Of a DNA stretch of 64,000 nt, positions 7,531 through 61,482 are shown piece by piece. A model generated the notes under the pieces. The model saw only the letters and a list, made by a program, of their open reading frames with translations, did no database searches and had not been told where the DNA came from. Each line of letters opens with the position of its first letter. Position 1 is the stretch's first letter. Both the position numbers and the translations under genes were made by a program. The stretch comes from Psammoneis japonica (Eukaryota): assembly GCA_008632985.1 (NCBI GenBank), contig QPGO01000114.1, forward strand, positions 1-64,000, written 5' to 3'.

Positions 7531-9888
7531 AGTGTCTAAGGAAATTGTAAACACAGCATGGCATAGTTTTCATTGCATAGATAATTGAAATGTTGTTTAT
7601 AGCAAATGTTACAGCTAATTAGTCACAAAGAAAGCAATGGGAATGACTCACTGGCGGTCTTTCTCTGCTGACGGTTCTGCTGTTTCCTTGTCTGCAGGAG
7701 TCTTCAACAGAGAAATAGAAGATGCATTATTTACATCTCTAAGGAGTCGGCTGAATGCCTTCCTTCCTCTTGTTTCTGGCACAGCTGTGGCCTTGATGGA
7801 TTAATGGGATCTCCTTTGAGCAAGTCACGACAGTGTGGCGCGGTGGAGGTGTCACCATGCCCAGAGTCTTGGTGGCTCAAAGCTTTACTGTAACAAATTT
7901 CCATTGGCCAATGGGCCTCGTTTCCAACTCATAGAAAGGGAAGTAAAGGAGATTCATCTATTTCTGCTCATATTCCAGCATCATACCGTCTTCCGCAACG
8001 CCGACTTGATTGAGAAGATGAGAGGCGCCAGAGCACTCGTCTCGAGCTTTTTCACCAGTGTTGAGACTAGGAACCACTTCTTTCCCACCTGAAATGTTGT
8101 ATGACGATTAGTTTCTTGGACGTGATTGACAAAGACTCGAATGCGGTGTTAATATCCCTTTTGAGGGCTTCCAGGTTATTGTTGGCGGCTGCCTTCGGAG
8201 CTGCTGGGATGCCCAAAGTGGAGTTGTCATTTCCCGTCTCCTGCATAATGTGATGGCGATGTTTTTGCACACATTGTTGGTAATGGCATATAACAGCAAT
8301 AATGCGCCGAAACATCGGCGTTGAACACATTACTTTCGACAAACGACATCGTCAACAGCAGCGGCACTCACCATTTTGTTTTGTCGCGGTGAAAGTGTGG
8401 AAAAATTAGTTTTTTGCGTTGGCCTGCAGCAGTGATATACAACATATGTACATTGATATCTGTGGTATAACGTTAATATTTCTACGCTACTATGTCGCCG
8501 AAATAAGCACCGTGGCGCAGGCGATTTTGACAAATTCGGCCGATTCCCGACGTAGAGCCACGCAGGCATGTGCCAGTGTTCCGGGAACCGGCCGTCGCGT
8601 TCCCGGAGTGAGCGATGGAGCGATGCACATGACATGGCACTGGAGGGTCATTTCTGGCTTGTAGAAATCTACACGTTGTCTGGCATTGAAATTCAAAAAG
8701 TAATGTTGAACCAACAGCGTTCCCGATCCATTCAAAAACACCGAAACATCACTCCCTCATTCATTTCGTTCGTCAAGACATGGAGAGTGTGCGGCATGGA
8801 ACCATTTCCAAACAAGCTACATTCTGTTCTTCTGTCTCTTCTCACTTGAAAGGCATGTTTACATCGAAAGCAGTGTTGATGCATCATGCATTTGCAGCAC
8901 CAGTGTGAGGATTTTTAACCTGACAATGTCATTCTCCATCTCCATCTTTCCCATGCAGACATGCAGTGCTGCACCTCAAGACACACAGCACCTCAAGAGA
9001 CTCCACAAAGTGTGTTGTGGGTTTTGTTTCTTGTTGCCTTCTGATCTGCAAATGAGGTTTGAGACACAACCTGAACAATTTTGGGTCGTGGTTGTCGGGA
9101 ACGACTTGCACCTCATCAATTTGGGGCTGTCGTCAGAAGACCGCACACTTTGTGGTGACGAGGTGTCAACGAGTTTTGCAAACTCAAGACGTGCAGCACA
9201 GTGCCTCAAGAAATGCAGCACCTCAAGACACCATCACGGAACACAGCACATTGCACCTCAAGTTCGTCTCATTTCTTGTCAAGTGGTGCATGACTGTCCT
9301 CTCTGTGCTGCAGCAAGGTTGCGGTGTGCGCTGGATGAGTTGAGACAGTGTCTCAAGAAACACAGTGCCTCAAGACACCATCACGGAGCATGGTGCATTG
9401 CACTGCGAGAAGCAAAACCATTCATTTCGTTCGTTGACGACAATGTGTTGGTGTGACCTGTTGAGTTCTCGCAATCTTTTTTAGAGCAAGTGGCACTCAT
9501 CCATGACACTGTCTGCTGAGTGTCACAGGACTGTCCGACGCGTTCCAGCCCCAGGTGGGACTCCTTGTGACATTGGGCCCGTAGAATTCTACGTGCGAGC
9601 TCCGTAGTGCGAGAATTTAATCAATGGACACATTTATCTTCAACATCAAATAAACGGCCAAGTTTGTGGTGCAATTGTGCCTCTTGCCACTCGACGTTTT
9701 TGCAACTTCGCCTGCCCCACGCGATTCTTAAGACATTGTAGAATCGCGCTGCAACAAAAAATGTCAAAAGTTGTTGGACGGATCGCTCAACAAGTGCACC
9801 GTAAAATGACACAAAATGTCGAAAAAATCACGCAGAAATCTACGTGCGCGACATGCGACGAGACTCAAAAAACTGTCGATGTCACAGT

Positions 9889-12188
9889 TCAGCAGCACGA
9901 GGTCCCACCTAGACCTGGAACGCGTCGTCCTTTGTTTTGCATGTTGAGTTCCTCGATCACCTGCTTCCGAATCGTCGCTCGCTCTTTCTCGCGACGGCCT
10001 TGCTCCAATTCTGATTCAAGTGCTTTCACCTTCTTGCTGTCTTCATCCGTCTCGCTGCGGACTTGATCCAATTCCTTTGTGACGTTGTTCAATTTTGTGC
10101 GTTCTTCTTCATGCATGACCTTGCACTCACTCTTGCNNNNNNNNNNNNNNNNNNNNNNNNNNNNNNNNNNNNNNNNNNNNNNNNNNNNNNNNNNNNNNNN
10201 NNNNNNNNNNNNNNNNNNNNNNNNNNNNNNNNNNNNNNNNNNNNNNNNNNNNNNNNNNNNNNNNNNNNNNNNNNNNNNNNNNNNNNNNNNNNNNNNNNNN
10301 NNNNNNNNNNNNNNNNNNNNNNNNNNNNNNNNNNNNNNNNNNNNNNNNNNNNNNNNNNNNNNNNNNNNNNNNNNNNNNNNNNNNNNNNNNNNNNNNNNNN
10401 NNNNNNNNNNNNNNNNNNNNNNNNGAATGTCCGCATTGAGCTTGGCAATCTCGACCTGATGGCGCTGCTGCAATTCCGAGGAAACTGCTTCAAAGGTTTC
10501 AGAAGCTTGCACTGTGCGGTTGGTGGATTGCTGGACAGGCGGAAAAGACTTGTGCGGCAGAGCTGGGTTTGTGTCCGAAAGACGTCGGCGTTTTGCTGTG
10601 TCAGTGGGTCGGCGGTCCACAGCATCCAATGCGGCAATGGCTTCATTGCCCATGTCTGAAGAAAGCCTTTTGTGTGGGTCTTGACTCTTTGTGTTCTTGT
10701 GTCGAGCACGACGAAGGCGTTCGGGGGTTAACACCTTCGCGGCCATCATGAGCGAAATGCCGCATGCGCGATTGCCATGGTTGGTGCACTGTTTCCAGTC
10801 CTTGAATTCGCACAACTGTGCAATGTGCTTCACACTCCGATGGCAGTCTTTCCCAATGGCTTGTTTGGGTTGAACTTGCAGGGCAGGTTTTTGAGATCCC
10901 ATTCGCGCTTCTGCACCTTGCTCAGCGGGCCGCAGAAAACGCGAACTTGATCAGGATGCGACCACTTCCGCAACTGATCAAAAATCTTGACAATGCAAAC
11001 AGGGTCATGGGGGTTCTCAACACATTCAATGAGCCCCTCTTTCTCGGTGCGTCCTTTCAGATTTGACAATGACAACTGGTGTGTCTTGTCGATGTCAATC
11101 ACAGAGTTGAGTCGCTGCATGCCAAAGAACTCGGATTGCTCATCATCAACAACGTCTTGATGGAATTGGTCCCACACAGCTTCGGAGACCTCTGCCACTC
11201 CACGAAAAAGGAAGCCATGAGCAAACCAAAACGCAAGCATCTCTTGACAGTGAGAGGGATCCTTGCAGGGCTTGAGCCCACCTTCCACAACTTTCACCCA
11301 AAGCTTTTTGTCGCCCTTCCAATCAAATTTTGCAGCGTTCTTCCCAACTCCAAAGGTGGGATCGCTTTCTCGCAATTCCTTCCATCTCTTCTTGCAGTTG
11401 TCGGCAAACTCTCCTTTCCCATTGAAGTCTTTCTTGAAGTCACACTTTGTGCATTTGCGATGGAAGGTTCCAAAAAGCGTCTTCATGCATTGCCCAAAAG
11501 CAGATGGTTCAAGGGCTTCTCCGGTGGGTGGGTTTTTCCAAGAGAAGAACACCAAGTCGCAACATTTCATCAGCACAAGGCGTTTCGGCTCACTCTTCTC
11601 TCCGCCAACCTCATTGTAGAATCGAAAATCCACGAGGAGACTGTCGCTCATTTCCGTCGGCACTTGCTCCAGAAGGCATTGCATCTTGTTTCCGCCTTTC
11701 TCTCGAATGGCATTGAAAAAGCGCATCTCGAGGTTGCAGGATTTTCGTTGGTGAGTCGTTTCTTGGCCTGCAGCAGCTTCCATCAATTTGCGATCCTCAT
11801 CCGAAACATTGAGGACGCTCTTGTCCTTGGCAATGACAGCTGTGGCAAGGGCGAGAGTCTGTCTGCTGGCTGTTGGCGAGGTCGTTGGAACAGTGGTTGT
11901 GCCCGAATTTGCTGCTGCGCCAGGATTGAACATTGCGGCCTCGGTGGGGTTTGCTGTGTGTGGCTGTCGGTTGACACCGACAGCAAGGTGGGCTTGCGGC
12001 TCCATCTCCACGGAAGCATTTTCTTGAGCCGCCCCCCCAAACAATTGAAACAATGCACTGGCTGCATCCAATGCATTCTGTGTCAGCACAAAGTCAACCT
12101 CTTCACCCTGTGAAAATGCGTCGTCCAAGTTTCGGCGCTCCGAAGGCGCAGTGCTTGAAGCAACAGAAATGTCGTCTCGTGTGTCCAT
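9889..12188 (-). mobile_element. Degenerate tyrosine-recombinase gene, Crypton-like DNA transposon; frameshift near 10835, crosses an assembly gap
   Basis: Catalytic-motif order: FLFRG..E (Arg I), DKT, ENPHDPVC, KPLGKTAI, TNHGNRA (HxxR), ARHKN..SQDPH (His/Tyr box with His at the expected Tyr). Confidence 0.7.
10137..10424. other. Assembly gap (288 N)
   Basis: Run of n. Confidence 1.
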
Positions 12189-12750
12189 GATGATGTTGAG
12201 TCATGATTGGAGACATCTTCAGACGTTCCGCAGGATGTGATGGAAAACAAAACAACAAAAATTAGATTGCACATTACAAAAGCGGTGCAAATCGTCTCTT
12301 CATGTTGTCGTCCTTTAACTGATGGGTTCCTGTGGAAACCGATCATTCACATGGACGCGTCCTCACCTTTGGGTGCGCCTCGGCGTCGGTCGAGCTGTGG
12401 CGCGGAAATCGCTTTGCAATTTCCACACCTTGCGATTTCCACACCACAGCTTGCCCTCCGCCTCGGCGCACCCTCAGGTTTGGCCGCTCCGGCCTCCGTG
12501 GAATTTGTGCGGGAGAACCGGTGCTCAGCCTGCCGGCTTTGCACCGGTTCCGATGACCTCAGCTGACGCTTCGGTCATTCCCGTGCAAATTCCGCGTCGG
12601 CCGGCCAGTGACTGAATGGTTTCCATGCAAAACTCATCTGCGCAGGGCCCGCGCACGCGAAATAAAAAGCAAGACCGTCCGTCACATGCACGCTGATTTG
12701 CAAATTGACACCTCGCTCTGCATCCTGCATCCGACACAAAAAGACAGAAG

Positions 12751-15700
12751 ACACACCGCACCATGGTGCACAAAATTCGGAGGCCCACCACTTTGAGTTG
12801 GCCAGGGTGGGGCTGGTTGGTCACGCACGTTTTGGTTGGATGTGATGAGCAACTGGCCATGCCCTGCAGGAAAAGCTGTTTGGTGGCGTGTGATCAAGCA
12901 GAAGCAGCCAACTTGCAGCCAAAAAGCAAAAAACACGGAGTGGGTCAAGATGTGGCAAAGTGGCATGACAACAAGCAACGAGAAGAAACCCAACTTGACT
13001 CATGAATGTGGCGCACAAATGTTGTCCAATGGCTTTGATCCTGTCTGGAAAAGCCAGCTGGTTGACAAGTGAACGGCGTTCACGTTGCTCGCCATGGTGT
13101 TGTTGTGCATCATGGTGCCGCTGTCATTGCGCGGGAAGGACTGGGATCCATTTTACCCACAGTGACTCTGTTTGTCAACAGTGTGCATTTTGCTGCATGA
13201 AGTCTGAAGACATTCTGAGAAGTGCTTCAGGCGGGTGACCCTGTTCGCACCGTCAAACAGCAATTTTTTAACTCAGATTCCACAGTTCTTTGGGGGTGTT
13301 CTGCACTTTTTTGAGTTCATCTGTGCCTCAAGCTGGAAAGAGAATCATCCATGAAGTGCCGCAAGGAAGTCAACCAGACATGGGAAGGCATCTCAAGGAT
13401 TGACTCCTGTGACCTGCAAGCAGCACTTGATGTGGACTGTGGTCTGCATGATCCCCTTTGACCCACAAGCAGCATGGCACTTTTTGCTTGAGTTCATCAT
13501 CCACAGAAGGATGTTCCTTTGCAAACAACTCAAGAGATTTGTTGAACAAGGCCTGTTTCATGTAAAACCAGAGGATTTGGGAGAGGCTGTCGACAAACGA
13601 CATGCTTCGAAAAGGGCTGCAACAGATGCAAGAAGGGCCCGCCCTTCAATTTTGCTCTTGGCATTTGTCCTCTTGACCAACAACATTCCACATTTGGGTT
13701 GGATGCAGAAGTTGTGATGGCATCAAGGATGATGCCCTTGCAGCTGCTTCTCTGCACAGGCACCGCCACGAGCAAACAGCGCCGCATCTCTGGGCAACTC
13801 ATGGCTTGAGGGAATCATTTCTCTGAAATGCTGAGTGCAACCTGCACATCCTTGGCATCCAACAACTTGTCTGTGGTGCTCAGCACGGTGTCCTCTTTTT
13901 TATCTTGATTGGAAGAGAAGCAAGAATGAGTGCCATCCATTCCTGTGCAACTTGATGCTGTGGCCACAGCACTGCTGCTTCAATCCCTGTTGAATCCCAA
14001 CCAGCAAGCACAGACAAACTCCGGCAATTGTGCCATGCTCAACCTCCAACACCTGGATCAAACCAAAGGCACCAGGACATGTCACAATGCAGCTTGCATC
14101 CCAAAGAGAAATGAACAACAAACCAAGAGGGAAGAACAAAGACAATTGACTCAAAACTGGCAATGACAAACCTGCCAATCTCAAAGTGACACCCGCTTGA
14201 AGAGAAAAGATGCTTTGACTGAAAGTGTGGCTTTCGTGCCCAGCCACCAGCCCTGAAACCAAATTGCTTGTTTCCAGCATTTGCAGCACCCGATTGTGCT
14301 GCAGGTTGGTGGCAGCTTCTTGAGATCCAATTCAACAGCTGCAACATCCAAGCCACTGGAAACAGCACCCACACGACACCACTTGGGAGGTTGGCTGTTG
14401 GAAGCAGGATCCATCGCAGTTCTGCAGCTTGAGCAACAGATGTGTTTGCCATCAAGACTGGCACAGAACAATGTCAGAGCAAAGCATGCAGACAACACCG
14501 CCATGTGTCACAATGATCTGACAAGCACATGGTTCAACAACACCCCAGCAATGCCCAGCAACCAAAATGTCTGCTGTGACTCAACAAGAGAAGCAGCATT
14601 TTTGTCGTCCATGTCAACGCACATCAGTTTGAAACCCAATGGCCTGGGGAACCAGCAAATGAATGCCAAGTCTCCACCCACCATGGTTGCAGGCAGGCCT
14701 TGAACCCAATGCATGAGCTGTGCTTTGCCAATCAGAATTAGACCGCATCCCAACAATGTTGCAGAAAGCCCCAACCTCACAGTGACAGTTGCCAGCAGTT
14801 CATCATTGGCATGACCACTGTTCATGCAGTGCTGGGCAATGGTCCAAGCCATTTGTGACAAAAACATGAGACCCTCATCTTGCGCTTGTCCCATGGCTGG
14901 CAAGAGGCAAAGTCAACAGAAATGACAAACAAACTTGATGAACCATGCCCGATCCAATTGTGAGCTTGGTTGAACTTGGCCATGTGCAGAGCAAAGCTGG
15001 GGTCTCAATGCACGCACAATGTGTGGGGAAGCCCAAATTGGACTCAGCTCCTTTTGCTTCAATGCATGTTTTTGTCAGCGTTGCTCCGTCTCCGCCATCC
15101 CTCAACAAGCTGAGAAGAAGGCACAGGTTCATTGTTCACAATGGCGCTGCAATTGTCCTTTTCTCCCCTGAGCAGTTGCATGGGCTCCTCCACCAGATGG
15201 TCAACAATTTCAGCTTCTGAAGAGAAAATTGCAGAGCAGCCCAACAAACCAAGTTTGTGGTTGCTTGGCAAGAGCAATGCACTTGGTTGTGGCAGCAAAG
15301 GCATCAATGTTGATGGTGTGTCTTCATGCAATGTCAGCCCAGAGCAGCTCTTTCTGTTGCAACAAACACTCACAATGTTCATCTTGTTTAGATCTCTCTC
15401 CCAGCATTGTGTCTTCTTCAATTTCTTCTTCTCAAAATCACTGTGCTGTCTTTGAGACTGACAAAGTCTTGATTTTCAGATCCATGATTTTGAAATTCTC
15501 CAAACAGCCAGTTGTGTCACTGAAGAACCCTGCTTTGAGATTGTGGAGTGAACCATCCACAATGATTTTGGGTCATTCAAATCAAGCTTCAACAGCTTTG
15601 ATTGAACTTCAGCAGAGTGGCAGAACAAAATTCAATGTGAAATTCCTCCAACACTTTGACGGCACTGTCCACAACAATGTTCCATCACAAATCAAACTTG

Positions 15701-15809
15701 GAAGTGATGAACAAGTTCTTTGGTGGATGCAGACATGGCATTGCTTGTCAAATTGTTGTGGCCACATGGTGGCAGGCCTCCAAATTTTACACACCATGGC
15801 GTGGTGTGT
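12751..15809. mobile_element. ~3.06-kb element bounded by 41-bp inverted repeats (possibly Tc1/mariner-like, heavily decayed)
   Basis: 12751-12791 acacaccgcaccatggtgcacaaaattcggaggcccaccac vs reverse complement of 15769-15809 acacaccacgccatggtgtgtaaaatttggaggcctgccac; 33/41 identical. No transposase recognised inside. Confidence 0.7.
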
Positions 15810-16364
15810 TTTTTTGGATCTCTCCCTCTAGCGGGAATCAGACAAAACCAAAAAAGTCTGAAAAACCATTTGCATGTAAGAGGCATTGCTTCTCAATCAA
15901 AGTTCAATCTTTTGAATGATCAACAAATTTTTCATTTGTCAAAAATGAGCACATGAACATTCATCATCAGAGCATTCAACAAGACCATCATTTCTGTGTG
16001 AGTGGTGTTGAACTCAGGTTGACAAAGTGGACATCACAGACAATGCAGTCGAGCAAACAGGGGGCAGCTGTCATGCTTCAAGTTGACTTTAGTGCCGTGT
16101 CCAACATGTGGCCAGGCGTGGCATCAATGGTTGCTGTGGACAGTTGGTTTGCATGCTGTCTGGGCAGGTGGAGGTTGATTGAATCGGGGGTCCTTTGGTG
16201 TTTGCAAAGGAGCAGACCTGTGCCATCTTCCCACTGGGGTTGCCTGGAGCTGATTTGAGAGGCGGGAATGCAGGATCCCTGGAGACAACGGTGGGTTGCC
16301 CGAACTGTGGCGACACTCATCCTTGCATTCATTGGCAATTTTGGTGGGAAAAAAGTGTGCATTG

Positions 16365-16740
16365 TCCTGATTGTCACAGAAAATCTGTGTCAATTTGAAA
16401 ATCTGTGAGATTGTTTCAGGGACCGAATGAAATCTGCAAGATTTTAGAACGGAAAATCTGGAATCTGCCCCGTCTGTCTTCCCCCCTCAGTTGCACAAAT
16501 GTGCACAGGGTGCACGTGTGCCGTGCCGGGAGGACCACTTTTGCTGCGCTGGGCCTTCAGAGGGGTTCTTCAAAGATTGCATGATTTGACAAATTTTGGA
16601 AAAAACTGGCTCCAGTTTTAGCAGAACAATTGAAAATCTGTGCTTTTTGAAAATCTGCAACTGTTTCTGAGGACCCCTTGAAAATCTGCAAGAAATCTGA
16701 ATCCCAAATCTGTGCCACAGATTTTCTGTGACAATCAGGG
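16365..16740. mobile_element. MITE (~376 bp) with 24-bp perfect TIR and internal aaatctg repeats
   Basis: cctgattgtcacagaaaatctgtg (16366-16389) is the reverse complement of 16716-16739. Flanked by TG on the left and CA on the right, compatible with a mutated TA target-site duplication. Confidence 0.75.
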
Positions 16741-19303
16741 CAAATGTTTGACAACAACATCAATGCATCCTCGTGAAAACACTTTTCTGCTTTCACTTGC
16801 AGTGTGGTCCAAGAGTGATTCCCGCTGTGGGGATGGATCATTTTCTTTTGTGTGGCCTGGGTGACAAGTGGCAAGAGTGACAATTTTCAAATCTCCGCAT
16901 GACAGACGGACACACTTGTTGTAGAAGACATGGCCTGCCTGCCTGTCTGCCCACCTTTGTGTCTCAGATGTCTGCATGAGCCAGGGGTCATCACACACTC
17001 AGCCCTGGATGCACTTGAGCCGCTGGCCTGAAATGTTGATGTCATGCGCACATTTTGATCCAGCCGCTGTGAAAAGCCAATGACTCCGGCAGCAACAAGC
17101 AAGTTTGTTCTCAACAGGACATTGCAGCACTCTCATGTGTTCTTTCCTTCATTGTGACATGCAACTTTTTTGTTTGAAATCAATCCAAAACATCTTGTTT
17201 TCCACTTGCAAATGTGCAGGACCATTGCAGAATCCCACATGTTGCCAGTCCAAGTTGCAACTCATTCGAAGTTTCAGTTGCCCAAACATCCCCATTTCAA
17301 CGGATTTGGGTCAAGGTGAAGTTGTTCAATTGTTTTGAAAAGAAGTGCAGCAAAATTGGGACAAGAGCACTGCTGTTGATGCCTCCGATCATTGGATGGA
17401 TGCCGGAACATTCATTGTGAGGTGAGCACTCGAGGGCAAGTTTCGCGGCATTTTCTTTTGTTTTGCTCTCAAAACAAATTGTTCTCAACATCTTTGTTGT
17501 TGGGGTGAAGTTTTCTTGCCTGTTCTTTTGGAAAGAATGAGAATCAGAAGAGCAGCAAAGCGCAGACAAAAATTTTGTTGTGCAAATCAAACGTCTGAGG
17601 AGCCACTCCCCACCAGCAAGTGGCACCACTTTCTAAGACAGACCAACACAAGAGCCCTGGACAACCAGTTCGGATGTGTGTTGCATTGACAACAGATCTC
17701 TAAGAGGCACTGCATGCCTTGGAGACTTTCTTCTGCTGCTTTGGCTGGACAAGCACTGTCCGTCGTGACCTCCAGCCCAACAGCTTCCGGCATCTCAAGC
17801 ACTTGTTGCACTGTGCTTCCAGCTCCAATCACCCACAATCATTAAAATTTGGGACTCATGACAAGACACAGTGAATTTGATGACAACATGTGACAAATCT
17901 TCTTGCAGCAGTCCAAGTGGATTTGGTTGTCAAGATGAGCAGCTTGCAAACAACTTGAAGGCGGGTCTGTGTTTGTTTCTGTTCACATGAAAGCACCCAT
18001 GCAAAAGCACCCTAAAAAGCCAGACACCTCAGCCCATCATCTTCCATGAACACACAAGTGAACAGATGTGATTGCATCCAATGCACTTGGACTTGAACAT
18101 TGGAAATGGCGTTGCCGGTTGATGCACCTGTGGCAGAAATTTTGGCGGAGAGCAAAAAAGTGTCAGCAAAAGTGCGACAACTGACAGTTCGAGCGGCAAT
18201 CGCCTGATGACATCCTTCCCACAGGATCAATCAAGACATTCCTTGTGGGCTCACCAATCAAATTAAAACATTGACGAAGTTGCAACCGAGCAACCAACAT
18301 TGTCCACTGCATGTTCTTGCCACAGAAAAGCATGAAGCAAGGCGGTGCTTGACCAACCAGCACGAATGTCAGGTGACTTCATTCACACCAAATCTTTCAT
18401 TGAATTGTTCAATGAATGTGTGGACCTTTCATGAACTTCAGCTGCAGAGGCATTTGCAACCTTCAATTGGGATGGAGGCAACAACAGCAAAAATGCACGA
18501 GAAACAGTGATGTGAAAAATAAAAGCATCTGAAGGAAAAATTCGAGTGGCAATCGCTGCGCCACATGATGCTTTCAATGGGGTTTAGAAAGACTCTGCAG
18601 ATGCAATTGCCACTTGATTGTCAACATTGATGCCACCACAAACAATTTGCTCACCTTGGTTGAAGTCTTTTTTCTCGTGCAAAAAGCATGAGAATTGTGG
18701 GGTGGCAGACAAACGTGCAAAAAAATGTTTCAGTCAAACATGGCATCTTTTGATTGAATGTCTCCGGCCATTTGCCCAACTCAGACAGCTTTGCTTAAAG
18801 CTGGACTGTCTGAGTTGGGCACACAGGGACATTGAACCACCACACTTGGTTTTGTGACTGACTTTTAAGCTGCTTGTGAGTTGAAACAAGTGCAAGATTT
18901 GGCGGGTGACATCACTCCCTCCACGAGGAGGCAGCACGTTGCAGGCGTTGTTGTCATCATTTTTTTCATGCTCTGCACTTGCTGGCAACTGCATTTCCAT
19001 GCAATGCAATGTCTTGCAATGACAAGGAAAATGCCCCGATTGCTTGTTGAGCTGGCAAGTTTTTCTTTTTTGGTGTGTGCCACGTTTCAACCAGCAACAG
19101 CACTCAGTTGCAACAGTCTGTTGCACACATGATTGTGCTGTTCTTGTGCTCCACTGTCTTTGCTTTTTTGGCATCAGACGACCCAAAAAGTTCTCATGTT
19201 GAAGTGCTGGAAGATGAGCATCCCCCAAAAGAGGTGAAAGTGGAAAAAAGACTTGTGGTGATGGCAAGGCTTTTCATGCTGGCAGACTGGGTGCCATTTT
19301 CTG

Positions 19304-22300
19304 TTGTTGCATGCCGTGCTTGCACTTGCATCATTCAGTGACCACGCTCCCCTTGCCATTGTGGTGCAGCAGCTGGTGCAAAAGTGGAAAAAAACTTGCA
19401 ATGATGGCAAAGTGATGAGACTTTTGCACAAAGAGCATGCAGAAAAAAGACTGGATGTGTCAAAGCCCCCCATCATGACCACCGTGATGATGAAGCAACT
19501 CCTGGGGCTGTTTCCCAATGTTCCTCTCCCCTGCACTGCTGCTGCGATGCTTGAGTGCAACAATCCAACACAGCAACAGAAGGATGGGCCAAAATGTCAT
19601 CGCTGCCCACCTTTCCCAGTTTGCAGTTTCACTGAGACCCTGCAGGATCTCTTCACCAAGCCAGTGTTCTGTGATCTTTCCAAGTTGCAGGTCAATCCGA
19701 GTGACATTTGGTCACCTCATGTGCCACCCCCCACTGACGGTTGTTTGGATTCCAGTGCTGGCTGGGCCAAGGATGTTGAGATGTCATTCCCGGATTGTCC
19801 TGGTGACTGGCAATTGTCCACTCAAAGTCAAGACATGGGTGATGGCAAGTGGCAACAATGTTGCTCCAATGCCAACAAAACAGCCTCTGATTTTCATGTT
19901 CACCTTGTCAATCACTCGGACAAGACCAGAACCAATGCGGTCAATCCTCATGGGATGGAGCCTGCCAATGTGCTCACTTGCCATGATTCAAGAGAATGCA
20001 CACTGTGGCTGTTGTTGTTGTTGTTGTTGGCATCCACTTGGATTCACACCCAATTTGGACAAGAAAGACAAGCTTGGGCACCTTGTTGTTGACAACTGTC
20101 GCCGCATTCTCAAGGAGGTTCTCCGTGGTCTGCTTCATTGCCAGGCAAATCCACCCATTGTTTGTGCAACAATGGGCACTCAATGCCACCATGTCAGAGC
20201 CACAACACATTGCAACTCCCTGTTGGGGGTCATCCTCAATCAAGAATGCATTTGTGGAAGAGTCATGAGCCAAAGCAAGACCAAGAGGTTGTCTCACAAC
20301 TGCCATGTGCCCTCCCACCTGTCTGATGATCCCCTCCATGTCTGCCAATTCTTTGGCCAAGCTTTCATTGAGTTGCTCACTGTTGATGCATTGGGTCTGG
20401 ATCCAGAGGATGACAACAGCGAAAAAAAGGCTGAGACTGAGCCAGCTTCCTCCCTCATTCGCCGAATGACCACATGCTCCAAAACATTGAGGAAAGTGTT
20501 TGGACAGCATGCGGTGGACAATGCTTGCTTTCCACTTGACATGGGTGACAACCCACGCGGTGCATTCGGCATGACCATTGCTGATGTGATGCAGGTGTTG
20601 GAGGTGGGTGTTGTCCCTCAAATGATGGAGGTGACAATGGGAGAGATGTCCGCCAAACAGAAAGAGGAACACGACCGGATTGCATCTGAATTGTTCTGCA
20701 CATCCCATTGTCGTCCAGGTCAGAGACGTGACCATTCACAAATTCGAGTCAATGGGGGACTTTTCACACTCAGTCAACTTGCGTGTGATGAGAAGATGGG
20801 CAAGCTTCTTGCACTTGCAGTCATTGGCCACACACATGCTGGCAGAAAACTGCTGGAAAAAAGGTGCAATCCATCCTTTGACAGCAAAAAGAAAAAGACG
20901 GCTGATGGCTTTAAAGGAAAGAAGCAACAAGAAGAACAGTTCGCCAAATCATCAGAAAGTGAACCCAATGATGAGGACCCTGATCCTGCTGAACCATCAA
21001 ATGAACCAACTGGCAAAACAAACACAACCCCAGTTGATGAGAATGCACCTGTTGCATTTCCTAAAGAGGCATGGTGTGATGTCACCTGCGATCCATCCGA
21101 TTTCCATCACCGCAACCATGTGATGCAACAGATGCATCATCACAGCCTTTCTGAATTTTGGGAACCATTTCCAATCAACTGGATGACCGCTGCTTTTTGT
21201 CATGCCAGAAGATTGCATGGGATGAAACCAAGTCATTGAAGATGGAAACAACACGCTGTTGAGACTTCACCTGATCAATTGTTGATGCCCGGACTGCATG
21301 GTCTTGTCGCTGGTTTGGTGGATGATTGGAACAACTTTGCAAGGTGTGCGGACAGACGGCCCTTTCTTCTCACAAAGACAAAATTGCCAAGCACTGTCAT
21401 TCATGCTGAAACAGAAAACAAACTTCCGGAATCCTTCATGAAGATCACAGATGATGAAATGACAGCCAAAAAATCCGTCGATTGTGGAGTTGATGAGTTG
21501 CTGGACTTGTTGCATCACATGCTGCTTTTTCATTCATTTTGTCTCCATGGCAAGGGACTCTGTGGAAAAACAGGAAAGGTGGATTTCAAGTGCCGCGTCA
21601 TTCTGCTCATGTTCAAGATCAATTCATGCCTTCGTCACGCAAGGAACACTTGCTTGTTCCGAGCCGCCAAGTTCCACTCTGTGCTGCATCTCATTGTCAA
21701 CTCTTTCCTTTGTGGCCAGATTGCAAATTTCTCTGCCATGATTGGAGAGAGTCACCTGAAGTTCTGGGCCAAGCTTCTGGCAAAAACTTGCCAGGTTGCA
21801 TTGGGTGCAGACAATTGCTTGGACCAACTTGTTGTTTGTTTGCATGACATGGCAGTTCTTGAGAAGGCACACAGCCTTCTCATCCCTCCCACTGTTGGTC
21901 AGGTGAGCGTCTTCCTCTGAAGAAAAATTGATGCACCCCTTGTTTGTTGTGAACAGAACTGCCTGAACTTGCTGCCAGTGTTCAGGTGGCAACAAGGTCC
22001 TGGTCGTCCCAGAAACTGCAGAGTTGGACTCTGCCCTGCTGCAGAACTGTCCGCCAAGCACAATGAAGTTGTTGTTTGCTTGGAGTTTGCCACACCAGAG
22101 AAGGGGATCTTACAACAACAACAGGTTGCGGTGTGACACACCCAGGGTCTTGTACGAAGAGGGAGCTGGTCAGAAGAAAAGGCACCCTTTTTTGCTCCGT
22201 GGTTTTGTGTCAGCTGATGATGAAACAACGCCACTTGCCGCAGGACAGTGATGCAAGGAACAGACAAAGATGTTGTGTGACATGTCTTCCAACAGTGTGG

Positions 22301-22520
22301 TCAAGTGCTGGGAACTTGAAACAACAACTGTTGGTCGTGGCAGAGATTCTCAGACGATCCCAAAATTTTGGCATGCCAGCAGAGATGCAATTGCAGCGGG
22401 GGGGTTTCTGTCCTGGTTCCTGACAACTGCAATGGAGACAACGTTGAAGTGGTGAGATGCTCTGTCTCATTGTTGTTTGTTGCAGACAGACACAATGACT
22501 GGCCAAATCATTTCCTGTCC
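19304..22520 (+). mobile_element. Degenerate Plavaka-type (CACTA/CMC-related) transposase, several frameshifts
   Basis: Motifs HSDKT...MEP; VDNACFPLDMGDNPRG..G...DVMQ...VG; AKFHSVLH.....CGQIANFSAMIGESHLKFWAK.LAKTCQ; C-terminal FVADRHNDWPNHF. These resemble Plavaka transposase motifs as I recall them (KfH..H...fG...N....gE..lK..aK). Confidence 0.65.
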
Positions 22521-22669
22521 AACAAAGTGCTCCAGCTTCACTCAGACAAATGCAGGAAGCAAGAAAAAGGTGAACGACAACGCACCTTGGGAAAAAGGAA
22601 ATGTTCGCAAATGTTTTTTAAGCATTGTGAGTGCTCCAATGAGCCAGCTGCAATGGCATGTCAACCCAT

Positions 22670-24900
22670 CTAAAAGCATCTGTTGGATCCACTCCTTGTT
22701 GCTCCTTCTGTCAGCAACTGGAGCGAGCAGCAAAAAATTGCCAACTTGTCTAAAAGCGCTGGTTGGTCCTGCTCAGTGTTGATTCTTGAAATTTGAACAA
22801 ACCCCCTCTGCTTCGTCAAGTCATGCTTTGACTTGCCACAAGAGCAAACATCGACATGAGTTGACAAATCACACCATTGATTGCCAATGAAATGTCCAAT
22901 CCTGTGCTCCAATTTGTCAGGCCACAAACCACTTGTCGACTTGTTCGAATGCTCCAAAGAGCAAATGGGTGACACACCATGCTCGCTGGATGCAAGGCAG
23001 CATGGATCCTTGTGCAACATGTTGTTCATTGATCGATGTTCCCTGCAGCCTGGTTGGCCACATTTGGCCCAAGTTGGTCTTCTGCCATTTTTTCTTGCAA
23101 CTTCAATTGCATTTTGAACAACTTCCCTTGCCTTCAATGAGGAGATCCATTTGCCTCTTGTGTGTGCTTCCTTCCCCACAACACACATGTTGACAAAGAG
23201 ACAAAATCCAGAATTGCCCTTGGATGTGTGCGCCTCTGCGGCATTTCAAGGGGAGGGTTTGTCCCATCATGGAAGCCAATTGCCTGACCTTGTGCTCGGC
23301 AACCACTGCTTGGGCAAGTTGTTCTTCCTGGCTTTGCAACAAAACAAAAGTTCCCTGGCAGATTTGTGACTTCCATCAGAACATCAAATTGACTGGAAAT
23401 GAGTGCACAGCAGATTTGCATCTCCTTCATGTTGGTCAATGAAGGATCCATGCGTTGAAATCTCTGTAATGTCAAGCATGTCATTCCGCTCACATCGCCG
23501 TTGTTCTTCAATCATCACTTCATCATCAACACCAACTGGTGACGCAACAATCCCATTTCATTTTTCTGCAACAAAGTCTTCACAGATTCTTGGTTTTTGG
23601 GTTTCACAGATTCCCTCAATGCAGCCAGAGCAACAAGAGGTGCACCGTTGAATTCCACACCCACAAATGCAGCAAATTTGTCTCCGTGGTGGAAAGCAAT
23701 GCATCCCTCGCAGTGAAGCATGAAATTGAACCAGCTGTGGAAAATTGATCCCAGGAGAAGGTCTCTGTCTGAGCCTTTGTCAACAAGCAATCATGACATG
23801 CCCTTGTGATTGCCGCTGTCAAATTGCTGAAGGTGACCCCCAACACATTGGGCAGCGCACTGAATGTCATCTTTGTTCTCCATTGTGGAAAGGTTGAAGC
23901 TGTCTGTCTGTGATTCCAGTTGTTCCAACAGGGCATTTGCATGTTCACAATCCGTCTTGAACAGTGGCTTTCGCAACTGGATTCCGACAATCTCTCTGTT
24001 GCATGACAGATGGTCAAAAGCTGTGATTGTGATGGGCACAGAATGCCTTTTCAGCTCATCCACCAAATCATTGCCAATGTTGTAATCCCGCCAATCATCA
24101 ATGAACATGACACCATTGCTGACATCATCCAAGAGGAGTTCCCACTTGTTTTTCAAGTCAAAGTGTTTTGGAGGGAAGCTGGTCATGTGAGATCCTGCCT
24201 CATTGAGTTTTTTAGCACACCTTGCAATTGTTCTGGGCAACCCAACCAGGCTTGGCATTTCTCAGACAACCTTTGTCTTTCTTCCAGCATTTCTCCTTGG
24301 GGAGACCTTTGTGTTCCCTGCAAAGCTTTTTGGCACACAATGTGAACCAAAATCACGGTCAGTTGCAAAATCCACTGTCTGCGCCAGGCAGAGAGATCTT
24401 TTTCCTTTTCTGTTGATCCAGGCTTTGCAACACCTGATCCACCATTGCGGCTCCAACCTTGAGCAATCACTCCATTCACACCAAAATCTTTGGCAACAGT
24501 CCCTCGAAATGAACGGTCAAACTTTGCAGAAAGTAAAAACTCTTGTGCCAACCCACTGCTCAGCCCCTGTTCAACAATCTTTCTGAGCTGCATCAACAAA
24601 CCCAATCCAAGAATTCTTTTGTCAAACTTGCGTGACCTGAACATGCAATTGTTGGCAATTCCTTCCATTGTGTCAAGGTGTTCAAAACAAATGGATGAGT
24701 TGGATCGCCTGCCTGGTGTGGGTGATTGGCGTCCGAACGCAGAATCTCTGCCTTGCATTGAAGGTGCCCACACATTTGCTCCAAAGCATTTGGACCCATT
24801 GCACCATGTGCTGTTGCACACAGCTTGAATTGGATGACAAGGGAACACCTCATTCCCTCCCTGCCTGGTTTTTCAACAAAAAGAATTTCATTGTCAAGTG
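22670..24900 (-). pseudogene. Decayed unknown coding sequence
   Basis: Chain of protein-like minus-strand ORF pieces (24183-24848, 23791-24258, 23134-23511, 22670-23188). No family recognised. Confidence 0.3.
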
Positions 24901-24999
24901 CATCAGACAGCTTGTTGGACTTCCGGCGAGGTTGTTTCAGGCAGAATTTTTGCTTGACTTCTCTTTCATTGTTCAAATGTTGCCAATGCTTTTGGGGCG

Positions 25000-26620
25000 T
25001 GTTGACAACAACCCGAGTTCTTGCCTCCCACCCCGTGTGGTTGGTCCTTCTTCCTCCAACAACTGACAAGATTGGCGCTGCACTGTTTGATTTCCTGGAG
25101 GAAAGATTCTTCCTGGGTTTTCTTGCTGTTTTTTCTTCCACATGCAGAGTCAGGCATGTCGTTGCAGTCAAGATCAGACTGCACAGCCTTTCGGATGGGA
25201 ACCTGCCTGCAACATGGGCATCACAGAAAATGCTTGTGTCTCTTGAGACTGCATGTTGGACAATGCACACAGTTGTCACCGGTGAAAACTGGAACACAGC
25301 AAGGGCCCTTTCTTTGTCCAGCCAATCCGACAAATTTGACTGGACCTCCAAAATCTGGAAAACACGCCAATGCAGCTTCATCTGTTTGTGCAAGAGATGT
25401 TTCACCTCTTCCTGTTTTAAGGATGGATCTACGTGCTGCGGTCTAATTTGAAATGGCTTGCATTTCCCGCACTTCACCGTGTTGTTTTGACCTGCCTCGG
25501 AAAACCCTCGAACACTCATGCGTTTGTCAAACCCTCACAGGGGCTGTCAGATGGCTTTAAGAGCTGAACATTTGGCGCTCAAAATGCCACTTGTTGACCC
25601 ATGCCCTGTTGTCAGGTCGGAAAAACCGCTGATTTTTGCTAAAAATGGGCTTCTTGTGGCAGATTGGCGGTGACTTTCTGGGAAATGCCGACAAGTGGCA
25701 TTTGACTGGCTGTTGACATGTCTGCAGTCGTCAAGGTAAAACTCGTGCATGGCCATGCCTGTTGTTTAAGCATTCTGGCAGAGGGTGTCTGGCAAACGGA
25801 CAAAGTTTGACCCATCGCTGAATTTTTTTGCGAATGTGTGCGCATTTGCTGCGATGCATCCGGGTTGTTTGTGCAAAAATTGCGAGCTCCCAAAAAACAG
25901 ACTGCAGCATGTAGATCCATCCTCAACTCATGATCCTTTGTGTGCTCTTCCCTTGTGCAAAACTTTCCATGGGCAGAGATGTCTGCTTGTGCCTCGTCTT
26001 GAAGGAAGGGGGCCTTGTCGTGTGCTCACTCTTCATGCAAGAAGCAAACAATGCACTCTTCCAACACATGTTGTTTCTTCCATTTGACCCAAAACTCTGA
26101 AAAAGCAAGACTGCACACAGGCAAGAAGAAAATCCCAGTTTCTGTCAGCAACAGCAGCAGCTCCCTGAGTGCATCTTGGAAAAAAGGTCCCTTCAGAGCT
26201 GAAGCCGAGAGAGATGCGCCGGGTTTGAACACACGCAGTCAAAGCAAATGTGATCAAGCTTCGCCTCTTTGGACAATCTCTTCCACTCTGCTGATCTGTG
26301 CAAACTTGGAACATTGCACTCTGTGTGCTTTGGTGAGGAAGCACAGCACATCCTCTCATCAATTGTGCAAACGTTGCACACAAGTTCCTGCGGGCGTTGA
26401 GTTTGAATGCTGTCACGTGCATCTTTGTCACTTCCATTTAAATTGCCACTGACTTCCATGCCAGTTGCCAACAATCTGCTGGCATCATGGAACACTGCTT
26501 CACTCTCTGCCCCAGCTCAGATTTTGTGTTTGTCATCCATGTCATCCGTCTCCGCCCAAGCTGTGTTGTTGTTGCAGTCATGGGTGGCCTCCTTGCTGGA
26601 GTCGATGCCAGCGGCAATCA
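25000..26620 (-). pseudogene. Decayed gene, possibly a Rossmann-fold methyltransferase-like protein, interrupted by a MITE
   Basis: LDHICFDCVCSNPAH (back-mutates to LDHIYFDYVYSNPAY) followed by FFQDALRELLLLLTETGIFFLP, resembling the fD.i..D and L..gG.i.l strands of SAM-dependent MTases. Weak. Confidence 0.3.
25421..25922. mobile_element. 502-bp MITE, GG...CC termini, TTAA target-site duplication (Kolobok-like signature)
   Basis: ggatggatctacgtgctgcggtct (25421-25444) vs agactgcagcatgtagatccatcc (25899-25922): inverted, 2 mismatches, both CpG transitions. Flanks are TTAA (25417-20) and TCAA (25923-26). Confidence 0.8.
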
Positions 26621-27509
26621 TTTGACTTTGAGCTTGGCTTTCATTCTAGGAGACATCAACATGGATTTTGTCAGGCAAGGAACAGATGGGAAATGGAAGC
26701 AGCACGCTCAATGCAATCCCTCACCTCAACAGCCACAGATCTTTTGCATTTTTTGGTTTGGAAGTGGCGCACATTGATCATTTTTCTGCGTGCCTTTTTT
26801 TCTTTTGTTGAGCCAGCTCCAGGAGGGCTGCCTCCTTGAAAGCCAATCTGGCACAGCTTGGATCTGCTGGCCACTTTGCAAAGTCACCGAGGTGGTTTGG
26901 ATTGTGTGCATTGCTCTTCCCACTGCTCTCGAACATGAAGATTTTTGCATCAAACATCATCAGCATGATGCCACGGATGAAGTGGTCTGTCAAACCCCCT
27001 TTTTAAGTGACAAATGAAGGTGACCGCGTTTGTTCACCCAATGTGTGGGAGAATGACACAGCCTCAATTTTGTGTCAAGGCTGTTCTCCACACTGAACGG
27101 GGCCAGATGCACTGGGGGGGGGGGGGGGCAACGGCCAGATGGAATGTTGGCCAATGCTGTTTTGTGACATGGCAGCGGCAAAGCAATGCCAGGTTGAGTC
27201 AGGTGGAATGTCATCAGGAAAGAAGTGTGATGTGTTGGACTGAAATGAGATTCGTCTGTTCCATTTTGGTGATGTGGCATGACAGGCAAGGGATTGGGCA
27301 GCATTCTGTGGGGTGGGATCATGTTGAGGTTGTTGTTTCACACAGGGAATGACATGGCTGCAGAGGACAAGAGATGGCGTCACCCCAACATCATCCGTTC
27401 ACTGCTCAACATGTGTTGATCAGCAACTTGGACCAGATTTGGGAGACTGTGGTTTGCTGCGGGAGATGTGCTTCATGTCACAACAATGTGCAGGCTTTTG
27501 TTCAGTGCA

Positions 27510-27742
27510 TTGACAAAAAAGTGACACCAAATTGATCTGTCAACAGATGGTGCATCAACAAAAAAGCAATGCCAAATTGTTCTTTTGACACAGACATGTG
27601 CAACAACAAAAAAGTGATGCCAAATTGATCTGTCAACAGACAGGCGCATCAATGAAAAAGTGATGCCAGGTTGATCTGTCAACATGTGGGTGTGCAACAA
27701 AAAAGTGATGCCAAATTGATCTGTTGACAGATGGGTGCATCA
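27510..27742. repeat. Tandem repeat, ~45-bp unit, ~5 copies
   Basis: aaaaaagtgatgccaaattgatctgtcaacaga-like unit recurs at ~27515, 27560, 27608, 27655 and 27699. Confidence 0.85.
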
Positions 27743-28123
27743 TTTGCAGTTGTTTGTCATGTGCATTGATCTCAAAGAGATTGTTTTTGATGCAGAATGA
27801 ACGGTGGATGGTGGCTGTTCCTTTGTTTCAGCGGCGGCGTCAACATGAAAACATCACACAACAACCCTGACAAGATGGTGTGCAAGCAAGTTGTTTTCTG
27901 TGCTTTGAGACAGCTGGGATGACCCATTCAATGAAGTCATGCAGCAAACTGGATGGACAAAGATCATGTCACAAGGGGCCATTTGCAAAAAAAAGTCCAC
28001 CGTGCACCCGACAGATGCTGTTGGCAACACAGCAATGGATGCGGACTTTCGCTGAATTGGGTGAAATCTGCTTAAAAAAAGACCAGGTTCCATTTGATTT
28101 GGTGGAGCCAGCATGTTCAGAGA

Positions 28124-28886
28124 ATGGCGCAAAAGTGCTCTGTTGACGGATGCCGGAAATTTGCCCGTTGGCCAACAACGTCATGTCAGAAACATGGCAA
28201 GTCACCAACACACCCGGGTGAAGTGAAATCTTGTGTCGTCAAGAGCAATGTGGCCAGGTGCAAAGAAAGAGTGCACCAGGAAGGGAAAAAAGGCTGCTTG
28301 CAAAAATTCAAAACACCACAACCCCTGCTCAACAAGATCACAACCCTGGCAAACAAGGCACCAAGCAGCAAGCAAAAGAAGGAAAGACACCGTTTTGTTG
28401 GTGAGTTTGCCATTGACAAAAAGGACAAGGCGGAAGGCATTGAGTTGGCAGAAAAAATGTTGGAGTTAATTCCTGGCTTTCCCCTGGCAGATGATTTGGG
28501 CAGAAAGATGTCTCGGTGCACTCACTCCTGCTTCAAGTTCAAGATCAAACTTCTGGCAAAAGGGGGAAATTCATCACAATTGCATGGAAATGGAGCCATT
28601 TCCTGGTGACAAAATTTTCACCATGTCTCCATTCCTTGATGACACAATGGAAGACAATGGCACACTTGAGATGTGGCTGGACAGTTGTGAGGCAACATCA
28701 AATGAGAAGGAACATGAAAGACACTTGGTCAGGTTGGGTTTGGAAAAACAATCGCTGGTTGGAGAAGCAGGCACTGCATTTGTTTTTGATGCAAGAATGT
28801 TGCACCAAGCTTTGCCCAACAAAACAAATTTGGGTCGAAGGAACATGGCATGTCTGGCCCACAATTTTGACACAGCAAGTGTGTGA
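28124..28886 (+). pseudogene. Decayed gene: CxxxGC...C.KHG zinc-finger-like N-terminus plus PhyH-like 2OG-Fe(II) dioxygenase domain
   Basis: CSVDGCRKFARWPTTSCQKHG, then (frameshifted) FLDDTMEDNGTLEMWLDS...GEAGTAFVFDARMLHQALPNKTNLGRR, matching the PhyH pattern dd....nG.l....gS...aG.vvfd..l.H...N.s..R. Confidence 0.6.
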
Positions 28887-30699
28887 ACAAGCAGTCGTTG
28901 GAATGCAAAACTGGCCAAGTGGTGAGTTGGCAAAGGCAAAAAGTGAGTTTGTGCAAATGGCCAATTGACAATGCATTGCTTGCATGGAAGAAAGTCACCT
29001 AAAAAAAGGGAAAGTGCGAAGTTGCCCACTTTTGGCAGGCTTGAATTTTTGTTTGATGTCAGTCCCTGGGTTGTTCCCAGCGGAATGCATTGGCTCCACT
29101 GTGCTGTCTCTTTTCTTGGTGTGCTCATGAAGCAGGTGCCTGTCAACACCACCTCCCCATGACAGATCATCTGGACAGGCAGGAACAGAGAATGCTTCAT
29201 GCCTCCATTTGTGGGCACACACACAAAACATCATGTCCAGCAAAATGACAATGGCGCCTTCAGGACACTCATTGGACAGCATCTCCTCAAGTTGGTTCTG
29301 TGTTGCATTGTCGTCAAAAAGCATTCACCCATTGCAGTTGTTGAAGAAAATTTTTAAGTTGTTCTGATGGTGCAGCCTGCACACAGCATCATCTTCAGAG
29401 AGGAAGTCCTCATTGATCAGGGTGGGACAATGACCGGTGGGGTTGGGCCAGATGGCGTTGCACCACTGAGAGCCCAAATCATGATGGGTGGTGGAGCTCA
29501 ATGCTGTGGGCATTGCAGGAAGGAACAAGCAAATGACAGGCAATCACAAAACCAGCACAACCACTGCCAATGTCAAGGAAATAAAAAGAGCTGCGAGTGT
29601 GGGCCGCAAGGAGAGCGGGGTTGCAAATGACTTCGGCAAAGAAGGCAAAGCTTGCCATGCCACCATGTGATTCCACACCATCACCAGCAAAATGACCCAT
29701 TTGATCATCAATTGGTGGCATGTCATTGCAGTGGAGGGAACACATGTTCCTGCAACAGGAACGACTCACAACAACCATGTCTCAGTGGCAACAAGATGCT
29801 TTGGCAGCCATTGGAGGACCAAAAGGGAATGCGCTAAATTGTGGACAGATGCTTTTGCTGATGTGCACACGCTCAACAACAATTGGAAGTGGGTTGGATG
29901 GTTTGGGTGACCAAGAGAGCAATTGGAGAGATGTGGTGTTGGGGAAGTGGAGAGAATGACCGACCAAGACAGGGACAAATTGACAAGAGACAATGCGTGA
30001 TGTGGATTTGTGTGAACAAACAGGGGGTTTGACACAACTTTTAAAACCCAACGAAACTGATGTTGCATCAGGAAGCAGGTGCAATGCACACATTCATGTA
30101 AGAACATAAAATGTGTTGTTTGACATTGATTCGAATGATGTTGCAATCTTCACTGAGGCACTGGGTTGGCTGGCAAAGGCTCACAATTCAAAACAGTGGA
30201 AGGTTGACAGAAATTCAAACATGGGGTTGGGAATGAGCACTCAAAAATGATGCAAACACCTGTTTGAATTGAGAGAGGACACACGAGCAATGACAAAACA
30301 GAGAAAATCACATGCAAAGTGCGCCCACTTTGCAACTCACCTGCTCACAAAGCAACAGGAAAGGACAGCAGTTCCAAATGAGAGGAAGCCATTGGGGAGG
30401 TAAAAAAATGGAGGAGATGGTTCTCACAGGAGCAACAGAGGGAGGAAGTGTGACTTCAAGCTGTGAGCAAGGTTGAGAAAGGACATGACAAAGAGTTGCT
30501 GATGAACCAACAGAGCTGGATTTGCCTGTGTGGTGTCACGTGAAGTCACCATGAGCCCTGCGGTGGTGGCCTTGTTGAGCACACAAAGAAATGAACATGA
30601 GGAGCTGAACAGATTCCAGTGCACAGGTGGGGATTCGAGTTTGGTGTGGTGACTCCCTCAGAGGGATGTCTTGTGTTGGATCGTGCACCAGCGGTGGGC

Positions 30700-47634: not shown

Positions 47635-47635
47635 T

Positions 47636-47937
47636 GGGAAGCCATCTCATTGCCAAAGCAGGGAGGGACTCGAACATGCAGCACATGCACAACAAACACT
47701 TTGGTGAAGGAAGAAATGGCACAGCACATTTTGGATGAAAATCCTTTCATGAATCTTTTTCTTGTCAAGTCTGGTGTGTGCCCACCTGGACTTCAAAGGG
47801 CAGGACTCGATGGTGTTGAAAGAACAATGGTGCGGAGGTTTGAGTCCAAGTGATGAGGCAGCAGACCCCATGGAATTTTTCATTGCTTTTCATCACCAAG
47901 TTCCGCAAGACCTGGCTTCCTTGCCTTGACAATGCTT
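47636..47937 (+). pseudogene. Hypermutated C-terminal fragment of an NSUN/Nop2-family RNA m5C methyltransferase (homologous to 52632-52892)
   Basis: GGTRTCSTCTTN..EE vs EGTLTYSTCTIN..ENEE; aligns at nucleotide level to the 52.6-kb copy. Confidence 0.85.
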
Positions 47938-61352: not shown

Positions 61353-61482
61353 TACAAATCTACTTGGGCATCGTCGGCACACCGCACAGCCATGAGGCAG
61401 CACAAGAAGTGGCTTAGCTTTCAAAACAACAACAGAAACACTCCAACACCGCAAATTCAATTTAGCAAGCGTCCTCAAAACA

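Follow-up and report, generated by a model that had tools for sequence, protein, structure and literature searches.

In ascomycetes, RIP acts as a genome defence by dinucleotide-specific hypermutation of repeats and changes CpA to TpA. The process described here is likewise dinucleotide-specific and strikes repeats, but RIP runs in the opposite direction. A recent study by Mettrop et al. on Bigelowiella natans measured de novo TpA>TpG/CpA hypermutation in NCLDV and virophage sequences integrated into the genome, reported that TpA-poor genes are enriched in transposon domains and proposed an ADAT-like deaminase (bioRxiv 10.64898/2026.01.13.699255). TpA hypermutation itself is already published, for B. 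natans, and in our literature search this preprint was the single match on the subject. None of the matches listed dealt with TpA erasure in diatoms or with the loss of Tyr codons as a defence, and the main text of the preprint does not contain the words tyrosine, codon, diatom, pyrimidine or context. The new contribution of our study is that the nucleophile of a transposon recombinase was lost independently on several environmental branches.

For the element itself, Cryptons are the system to compare; their hallmarks include short (4-6 bp) terminal direct repeats without TIRs and several dispersed copies. Kojima and Jurka derived DUF3504 from Crypton recombinases (2011, PMC3212892). The CryptonS elements of oomycetes and Phaeodactylum (PMC3212892) share with our locus a single tyrosine recombinase with the R-H-R-Y tetrad, the likeness to DUF3504/Phage_integrase, the eukaryotic repeat context and an apparently low copy number. 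This comparison was made by description only. CryptonS are characterised by terminal 5-6-bp direct repeats, TATGG ends, a conserved C-terminal region and a stramenopile host. In the window, which here means the whole stretch of 64,000 nucleotides of Psammoneis japonica DNA that was analysed, no TATGG was found within 8.4-13.6 kb, but TA is erased there; terminal direct repeats of 5-6 bp were not found around the recombinase either, and TA editing would erase such ends. Moreover, the window copy is dead, and no GCR1_C or C48 peptidase domain was matched.

An earlier note on this DNA had recognised, in the region 9889-12188 (minus strand), a Crypton-like tyrosine recombinase with the motif order R...HxxR...H/Y and had suggested profile searches against integrase families. 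A Pfam search with the pieces of the window recombinase gave no informative match. Two word-based searches led to five relatives with about 30-35% identity, and with a profile of these five, 1,265 proteins scored E<=0.001; the analysis continued with the best 150. The closest relative of the window protein among those found has 36% identity, and no close intact one is among them. A profile of 37 relatives that was built without the window protein matched the read-through of the region with E=5e-108, so that the motif far exceeds chance expectation. DUF3504 was matched by 28 and Phage_integrase by 9 of the 64 family members (E<=0.01), most members scoring below the Pfam cut-offs. Against the PDB, a profile of 7 sequences found no match; the 64-member alignment matched archaeal XerA/XerC-like proteins, XerD and integrases (best E 4.8e-6), with the family Tyr aligned onto the catalytic Tyr. 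Similar results were obtained with the AlphaFold model of a relative, P0021 (pLDDT >90 over 348 residues), which in Foldseek resembled Tre/Cre and XerA at E 1e-5 and also QRICH1. The nearest Atlas clusters of P0021 are eukaryotic DUF3504/integrase (Phage_integrase) proteins. The window protein, which is linked to this modelled relative by the profile match given above, is predicted to have the Cre/Xer/Int catalytic fold. Since DUF3504 derives from Crypton recombinases, the label Crypton-like is a fair one, and the enzyme belongs to the Crypton/DUF3504 type.

This DUF3504-related recombinase is the sole transposition enzyme found at the locus. No reverse transcriptase or other Pfam match was obtained in the flanking ORFs, in which editing lowers sensitivity, and no RusA resolvase was found beside the recombinase among 67 + 58 flanking ORFs (window, L001/L004/L005/L006/L008), from which edited or short ORFs could escape. 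A viral origin received no support, as no relative was among the pattern matches from viral contigs (177) and prokaryote genomes (149) and a viral fold library gave generic integrase matches only, with 9-15% identity.

Table 1. Coordinates of the recombinase locus, its catalytic residues and its surroundings in the window.
Feature	Position	Strand	Remarks
TA-erased tract containing the recombinase	8921..33400	.	~24 kb, sharply bounded
392-bp segment with 26-bp inverted repeats (88%)	9536..9927	.	TC on both flanks
Frame 2 of the recombinase	9889..10830	-	HxxR, RH, nucleophile helix, then low-complexity/coiled-coil tail
Nucleophile codon CAC (His)	10672..10674	-	Tyr in relatives; preceding base A gives RTAY context, the most completely erased class
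His-III (H/W position), CAC, intact	10699..10701	-	His in 57/66 relatives
His-II-x-x-Arg-II, intact	10768..10779	-	CAT 10779-10777 and CGC 10770-10768; His in 61/73, Arg in 71/73 relatives
Frameshift in catalytic domain, between Lys and His-II	10830..10835	-	
Recombinase pseudogene, frame 1	10833..12188	-	452 codons; low-complexity N-terminus, DNA-binding part, first half of catalytic domain; 1 Tyr left
Catalytic Lys, AAG, intact	11085..11087	-	Lys in 95/95 relatives
Arg-I, CGT, intact	11202..11204	-	Arg in 104/109 relatives
Upstream multi-copy segment	12284..12695	.	summed contig depth 170-546 versus about 66

The recombinase region consists of two reading frames and not of one ORF (Table 1), which the earlier note had not mentioned. 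Frame 1 starts at 12188, includes Arg-I and the catalytic Lys and stops at a TGA (10832-10830). The read-through at the frameshift is about two residues shorter than the relatives. In the tail of frame 2 there is an unreadable 288-nt run of N, and the final codons and the stop of this frame fall within the 392-bp segment with inverted repeats. In run X1 one contig covers 10430-10887 without a gap and with a single differing letter (10513). Because this contig spans both the CAC and the frame break, both are present in the reads, and an assembly error is ruled out for either of them. X1 is possibly the source sample, so that it excludes an assembly slip yet does not provide independent evidence. 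An intron was also rejected as the cause of the frame break, as it would measure 5-8 nt or delete conserved residues.

The 392-bp segment retains 11 TA (o/e 0.43) between TA-free flanks and is probably a later MITE-like insertion into the 3' end of the recombinase. Alternatively, it could be the element's own end. In L004, an environmental relative, 36-bp imperfect inverted repeats (169-204 and 3100-3135) flank the recombinase ORF, and it is the recurrence of their 7-base core at window positions 9588 and 9839 that suggests this reading. On the other side of the gene, the multi-copy segment contains an imperfect palindrome with 56-bp arms (12357-12487) and two 16-bp direct repeats, and it may represent the 5' end or a recombination site. 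The segment is common to the window and to a sister copy up to about 12414. In run X1 this sister, a paralogue or an allele, is represented by a second sequence whose identity over 10.7-12.4 kb is ~90-93%, with 18 differences counted in 243 nt and 31 in 318 nt. The CA at 11279-11280 of the window is matched by TG in the sister sequence; a single TA edited independently in the two copies, or a single decayed CG, would give such a pair. Two repeats were observed nearby. A very high-copy repeat lies at 12799-13107 (summed depth 3,100-4,900 versus about 66), other copies of which are seen as loose ends with TA where the window shows TG/CA. Downstream of the recombinase, at 8957-9403, a short CCTCAAGA-centred motif occurs five times, possibly as a binding-site array at an element end.

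Of the six catalytic positions, the window copy has preserved five, the nucleophile being the exception, and the R-K-H-R-H/W pentad is complete but divided over two frames. The nucleophile had been expected at the CAC at 10674-10672 of the minus strand. These coordinates proved to be right, and the His aligns with the Tyr column of the family. This column is covered by 69 of 154 relatives (65 Tyr, three Cys and one His), and all four relatives without Tyr are Tyr-depleted proteins. Nine proteins with <1.2% Tyr were set aside before counting, and eight cluster mates were added to them later; the set-aside proteins have Cys at the nucleophile in P0071, P0122 and P0130, His in P0073 and Tyr in P0009. 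In the remaining 145 relatives, Tyr was found in 64/64 that cover the column. The earlier note had held that intact homologues with His at this position would speak against a conversion, and such His was found in 0/64 of these relatives of normal Tyr content. With a His instead of the Tyr nucleophile and a frameshift instead of an unbroken ORF, the window copy is a pseudogene of the tyrosine recombinase superfamily.

The nucleophile is only one of many TA steps that were lost. The recombinase gene contains 2 TA in 1,764 nt, whereas 56-70 are expected from four unedited ORFs, which amounts to a loss of about 55 TA steps (~96%), the nucleophile His among them. At the protein level, 1 Tyr is left in 395 core residues versus 15.5 expected (P=3e-6). 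Six Cys/His of the window protein stand at columns with at least 20% Tyr, and the frequency of Cys/His at Tyr columns is 1.5 per 100 residues; across 92 relatives the median is 0.24, and a single relative had a higher value. The TA o/e is 0.02 in the gene and 0.04 at 13.5-33.4 kb, compared to 0.49-0.76 in unedited genes and TIR elements. Over 38.7 kb of the window's edited DNA, the remaining TA comprise 3 RTAY, 55 mixed and 67 YTAR (n=125), versus 297 RTAY, 494 mixed and 163 YTAR in 22.4 kb of unedited DNA (n=954). With ~96% of the TA of the gene gone and only 3 RTAY left in the edited DNA, a TAC at the nucleophile position would almost surely be edited. TA editing is therefore the likely cause of the change from TAC to CAC, as the earlier note had suggested. 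Copy pairs also show T>C transitions outside TA and the gene has other lesions, which would suit an ordinary neutral Tyr>His substitution that arose in the decaying gene independently of TA editing; against the near-complete erasure we consider this highly improbable.

Altogether, the locus very probably holds a dead recombinase gene of the Crypton type that lost its nucleophile to regional editing of TpA. A Crypton-type DNA transposon with a Cre/Xer-fold tyrosine recombinase would have inserted here and then died. A regional mutator would then have changed nearly all TpA of the tract through A:T>G:C transitions that could strike the A on either strand, producing TA>TG on the struck strand and TA>CA on the opposite strand, and would have acted faster where a pyrimidine comes after that A. 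At the nucleophile, TAC would have turned into CAC via conversion of the A on the opposite strand. We infer both the ancestral TAC of this copy and the order of frameshift and editing.

Similar to what was reported for B. natans, the change and the dinucleotide are the same, the process is regional, and foreign or mobile DNA is affected while genes are spared; in our data the tracts are sharp, and the TA depletion of L004 is limited to the recombinase ORF. The depletion described for B. natans is mild (Rho 0.45), whereas it is near-complete here (0.02-0.04), with transposon-like tracts and a 3' pyrimidine bias.

Several other parts of the window were noted in this context. TA-free tandem arrays with units of about 90 bp and about 185 bp occupy 40936-42278, 49818-51101 and 53610-55427, and the arrays with 185-bp units are also almost without CG. 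Within the edited tract, a Tyr-free fragment at 28470-28883 (plus strand) matches PhyH dioxygenase (E 1e-4). An element at 56696-59610 with perfect 51-bp terminal inverted repeats and a TA o/e of 0.64 seems young and unedited; it has a 385-codon ORF without a Pfam match. It adjoins a second unedited element at 59639-61355, which has 84-bp inverted repeats (98%) and a 320-codon ORF, again without a Pfam match.

The direction of the change is given by pairs of copies. In three in-window pairs, 26/41 TA of the TA-rich copy are CA/TG in the partner, and in the reverse direction this applies to 1/193 CA/TG. As the TA-rich copy of one pair sits in an intact 572-codon ORF, the direction can be read as TA to CA/TG. 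TA is the most changed dinucleotide in the copy pairs, which thus show the A:T>G:C transitions at TpA known from B. natans; it is not the exclusive target, as old copies also show CpG decay. At 46987-47834 there are TA-erased partial copies of a DUF4116 ORF (62192-62885) and of 52632-52833, which argues that editing also strikes duplicated gene fragments. A tandem 430-bp duplication at 2980-4009 lies in otherwise unedited DNA, and 14/23 TA are changed to CA/TG in one of its copies. In the microbial-mat relatives L002 and L004 (91% identical), 47/72 TA of L002 became CA/TG in L004, 22 were unchanged and the reverse direction accounted for 7/30. Since L002 itself is partly edited and dead, the two do not form a clean before/after pair.

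A metagenome scan yielded 8 loci of recombinase relatives (the L series). The environmental relatives were taken from ENA, JGI, Logan and MGnify records and are only ~33% identical to the window protein. The 801-codon ORF of L001 is unbroken and encodes the nucleophile as TAT. L002, L004 and L005, which share 91-99% identity, form a single lineage in which His occupies this position; further lesions are a stop and the loss of His-III in L002, the loss of Arg-I in L004 and a stop in L005. In a tree of 62 sequences, Tyr-depleted members were found on five branches (window; P0073; L002/4/5; P0161; P0009), and the four environmental ones each adjoin Tyr-bearing relatives. Because of this scattered distribution, His or Cys at the nucleophile is not a subfamily trait. 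Seven edited lineages extend over the site, and in four of them (window, P0071, P0122/P0161 and P0130) no catalytic residue other than Tyr was lost. P0161, a protein of 832 aa, has every catalytic residue intact except the Tyr. P0073 and the L002 lineage have lost more catalytic residues than the Tyr, and P0009 is heavily edited yet has kept its Tyr nucleophile. The neighbouring ORFs of environmental recombinases, a metallophosphoesterase and a ligand-gated ion channel (L005:4592-5422, L006:1484-3625), have retained Tyr. P0070, P0071, P0073, P0117 and P0130 are database entries of 190-380 residues that contain no Tyr at all. Edited pseudogenes are thus annotated as proteins, and zero-Tyr entries could be mined as a marker of TA editing.

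These relatives also bear on whether the window copy is a domesticated, catalytically dead DUF3504-like host gene or belongs to a subfamily that naturally has His. Kojima and Jurka reported that Tyr is lost in all domesticated DUF3504 genes (PMC3212892), and KCTD1, ZMYM2-4, QRICH1 and WOC resemble our protein in having the recombinase fold without the catalytic Tyr. The fold match to QRICH1 and the DUF3504 Atlas clusters fit this, as does L004, which has an unbroken 754-codon ORF with His at the nucleophile. However, the domesticated genes are described as intact, conserved and expressed and have lost Arg-II too, whereas the window copy keeps Arg-II and has a frameshift in the catalytic domain. 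Its probable 3' insert, the gene-wide TA loss and the diverged sister copy also argue against an intact host gene. In addition, the scattered carriers of His or Cys are all Tyr-depleted, and L004 is without Arg-I as well and has 2 core Tyr. It is therefore very unlikely that either domestication or a natural His explains the locus.

Returning to removal of the nucleophile by TpA editing, the sequence context gives some indication of the mutator. In the L002/L004 pair the edited A was found in TAY in 42/76 and in TAR in 11/84 cases (p=1e-8); the three window pairs showed no TAY bias (17/45 with pyrimidine versus 9/25 with purine). The preferred target TAY is the Tyr codon. Native TadA is described as depending on UACG (PMC12296453), and on this ground an inherited preference of a deaminase would be a simple source of the TAY bias. 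For evolved TadA variants, editing of dA has been reported to be almost independent of context (PMC10085711). The chances that an adenine deaminase related to TadA/ADAT acts as the mutator are about even, and the mutator may serve as a host defence. The same history could also have been brought about by a mutator other than a deaminase, such as error-prone repair or replication, or the decay of an adenine/thymine modification on silent chromatin. The B. natans preprint goes no further than offering ADAT2 as a candidate. Over much of our tract CpG decay accompanies the TA loss (CG o/e 0.32 at 13.5-33.4 kb), which points to methylated chromatin. However, the two losses are uncoupled in the recombinase gene (TA 0.02, CG 0.77), and the strict restriction to TpA together with the 3' pyrimidine bias fits a base-reading enzyme. 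A non-deaminase mutator is thus a real possibility, although a somewhat doubtful one.

The earlier note had further argued that this mutation type removes every Tyr, would reliably inactivate tyrosine recombinases and other Tyr-dependent enzymes of mobile elements, and thereby offers a functional rationale for a defence role. The first part is true for complete TA editing. The second part stands in that complete editing kills such enzymes and recombination should end, but DNA cleavage may persist. According to its title, cited in the reference list of PMC4499138, Wittschieben 1998 found that exchanging the Tyr of vaccinia topoisomerase for Glu, Cys or His results in a site-specific endonuclease. 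His and Cys are exactly the two TA-editing products of a Tyr codon, but the precedent concerns a type IB topoisomerase and engineered variants (Tyr274 to His/Cys/Glu). By this analogy, the loss of Tyr would end recombination and perhaps not all DNA cleavage.

The rationale itself found no support. Complete editing of the intact L001 would alter about 51/801 residues, of which 22 are Tyr. In a simulation, all 16 dinucleotide-specific transition mutators were applied to five genes, and 13/16 left one or more amino acids without any codon. GA contexts eliminate Asp/Glu, and CA contexts eliminate His/Gln, with stops. T[A>G] had the fewest targets in 5/5 genes (41-80 per kb versus 88-167) and produced zero stops, whereas the RIP-type change [C>T]A gave 9-17% nonsense changes. 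A mutator of AA would strike the invariant Lys, and one of GA would reach the acidic residues in DDE and RT enzymes. Between L002 and L004, moreover, Tyr codons were not edited significantly more often, with 14/17 edited (8 Cys, 6 His; one Tyr>Phe omitted) versus 23/34 other TA (p=0.33). Two partly edited lineages have lost the catalytic Tyr and one has retained it, which is too few to say that this residue is struck early. Besides, the window copy is dead through its frameshift regardless.

It might still be argued that TA (TAY) became the target through selection, because editing there deprives tyrosine recombinases, and other enzymes of mobile elements that depend on Tyr, of their nucleophile. 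The identity of TAY with the Tyr codon would be in line with this, and so would the lineages in which Tyr is the sole catalytic loss, the survival of three CpG-containing Arg codons in the window copy, and the absence of a Tyr nucleophile already in L002 and P0161, both of which are partly edited. On the other hand, all repeat DNA is edited, coding or not and on both strands, most dinucleotide mutators erase some amino acid, P0009 kept its nucleophile under heavy editing, and a TadA-like preference for UACG (PMC12296453) accounts for TAY without codons. We therefore regard such a selection as decidedly improbable. An extended version would be that, in several protist genomes, transposons are targeted by a natural DNA adenine editor that reads TAY, and that full-length, DNA-binding, cleavage-dead recombinases poison active tetramers in trans or feed DUF3504-like domestication, the loss of Tyr being selected. 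Since the editor makes no stops and always turns Tyr into Cys or His, it would leave full-length cleavage-dead proteins such as P0161; we nevertheless consider this scenario improbable. The loss of Tyr is a reliable by-product of the sequence preference of the enzyme rather than its demonstrated purpose.

The idea of TA as a target chosen for the removal of tyrosines can be tested but is at present unsupported. At the level of single residues, the locus illustrates clearly that an enzyme of a transposon can be inactivated by TpA editing. As the same editing and TAY bias strike the family on several independent branches, TA editing is probably not peculiar to one genome. This widens the search space for an enzyme converting A to G in genomic DNA, and Tyr-free, Cys/His-rich transposon proteins offer a cheap protein-level marker with which databases can be screened for hosts.
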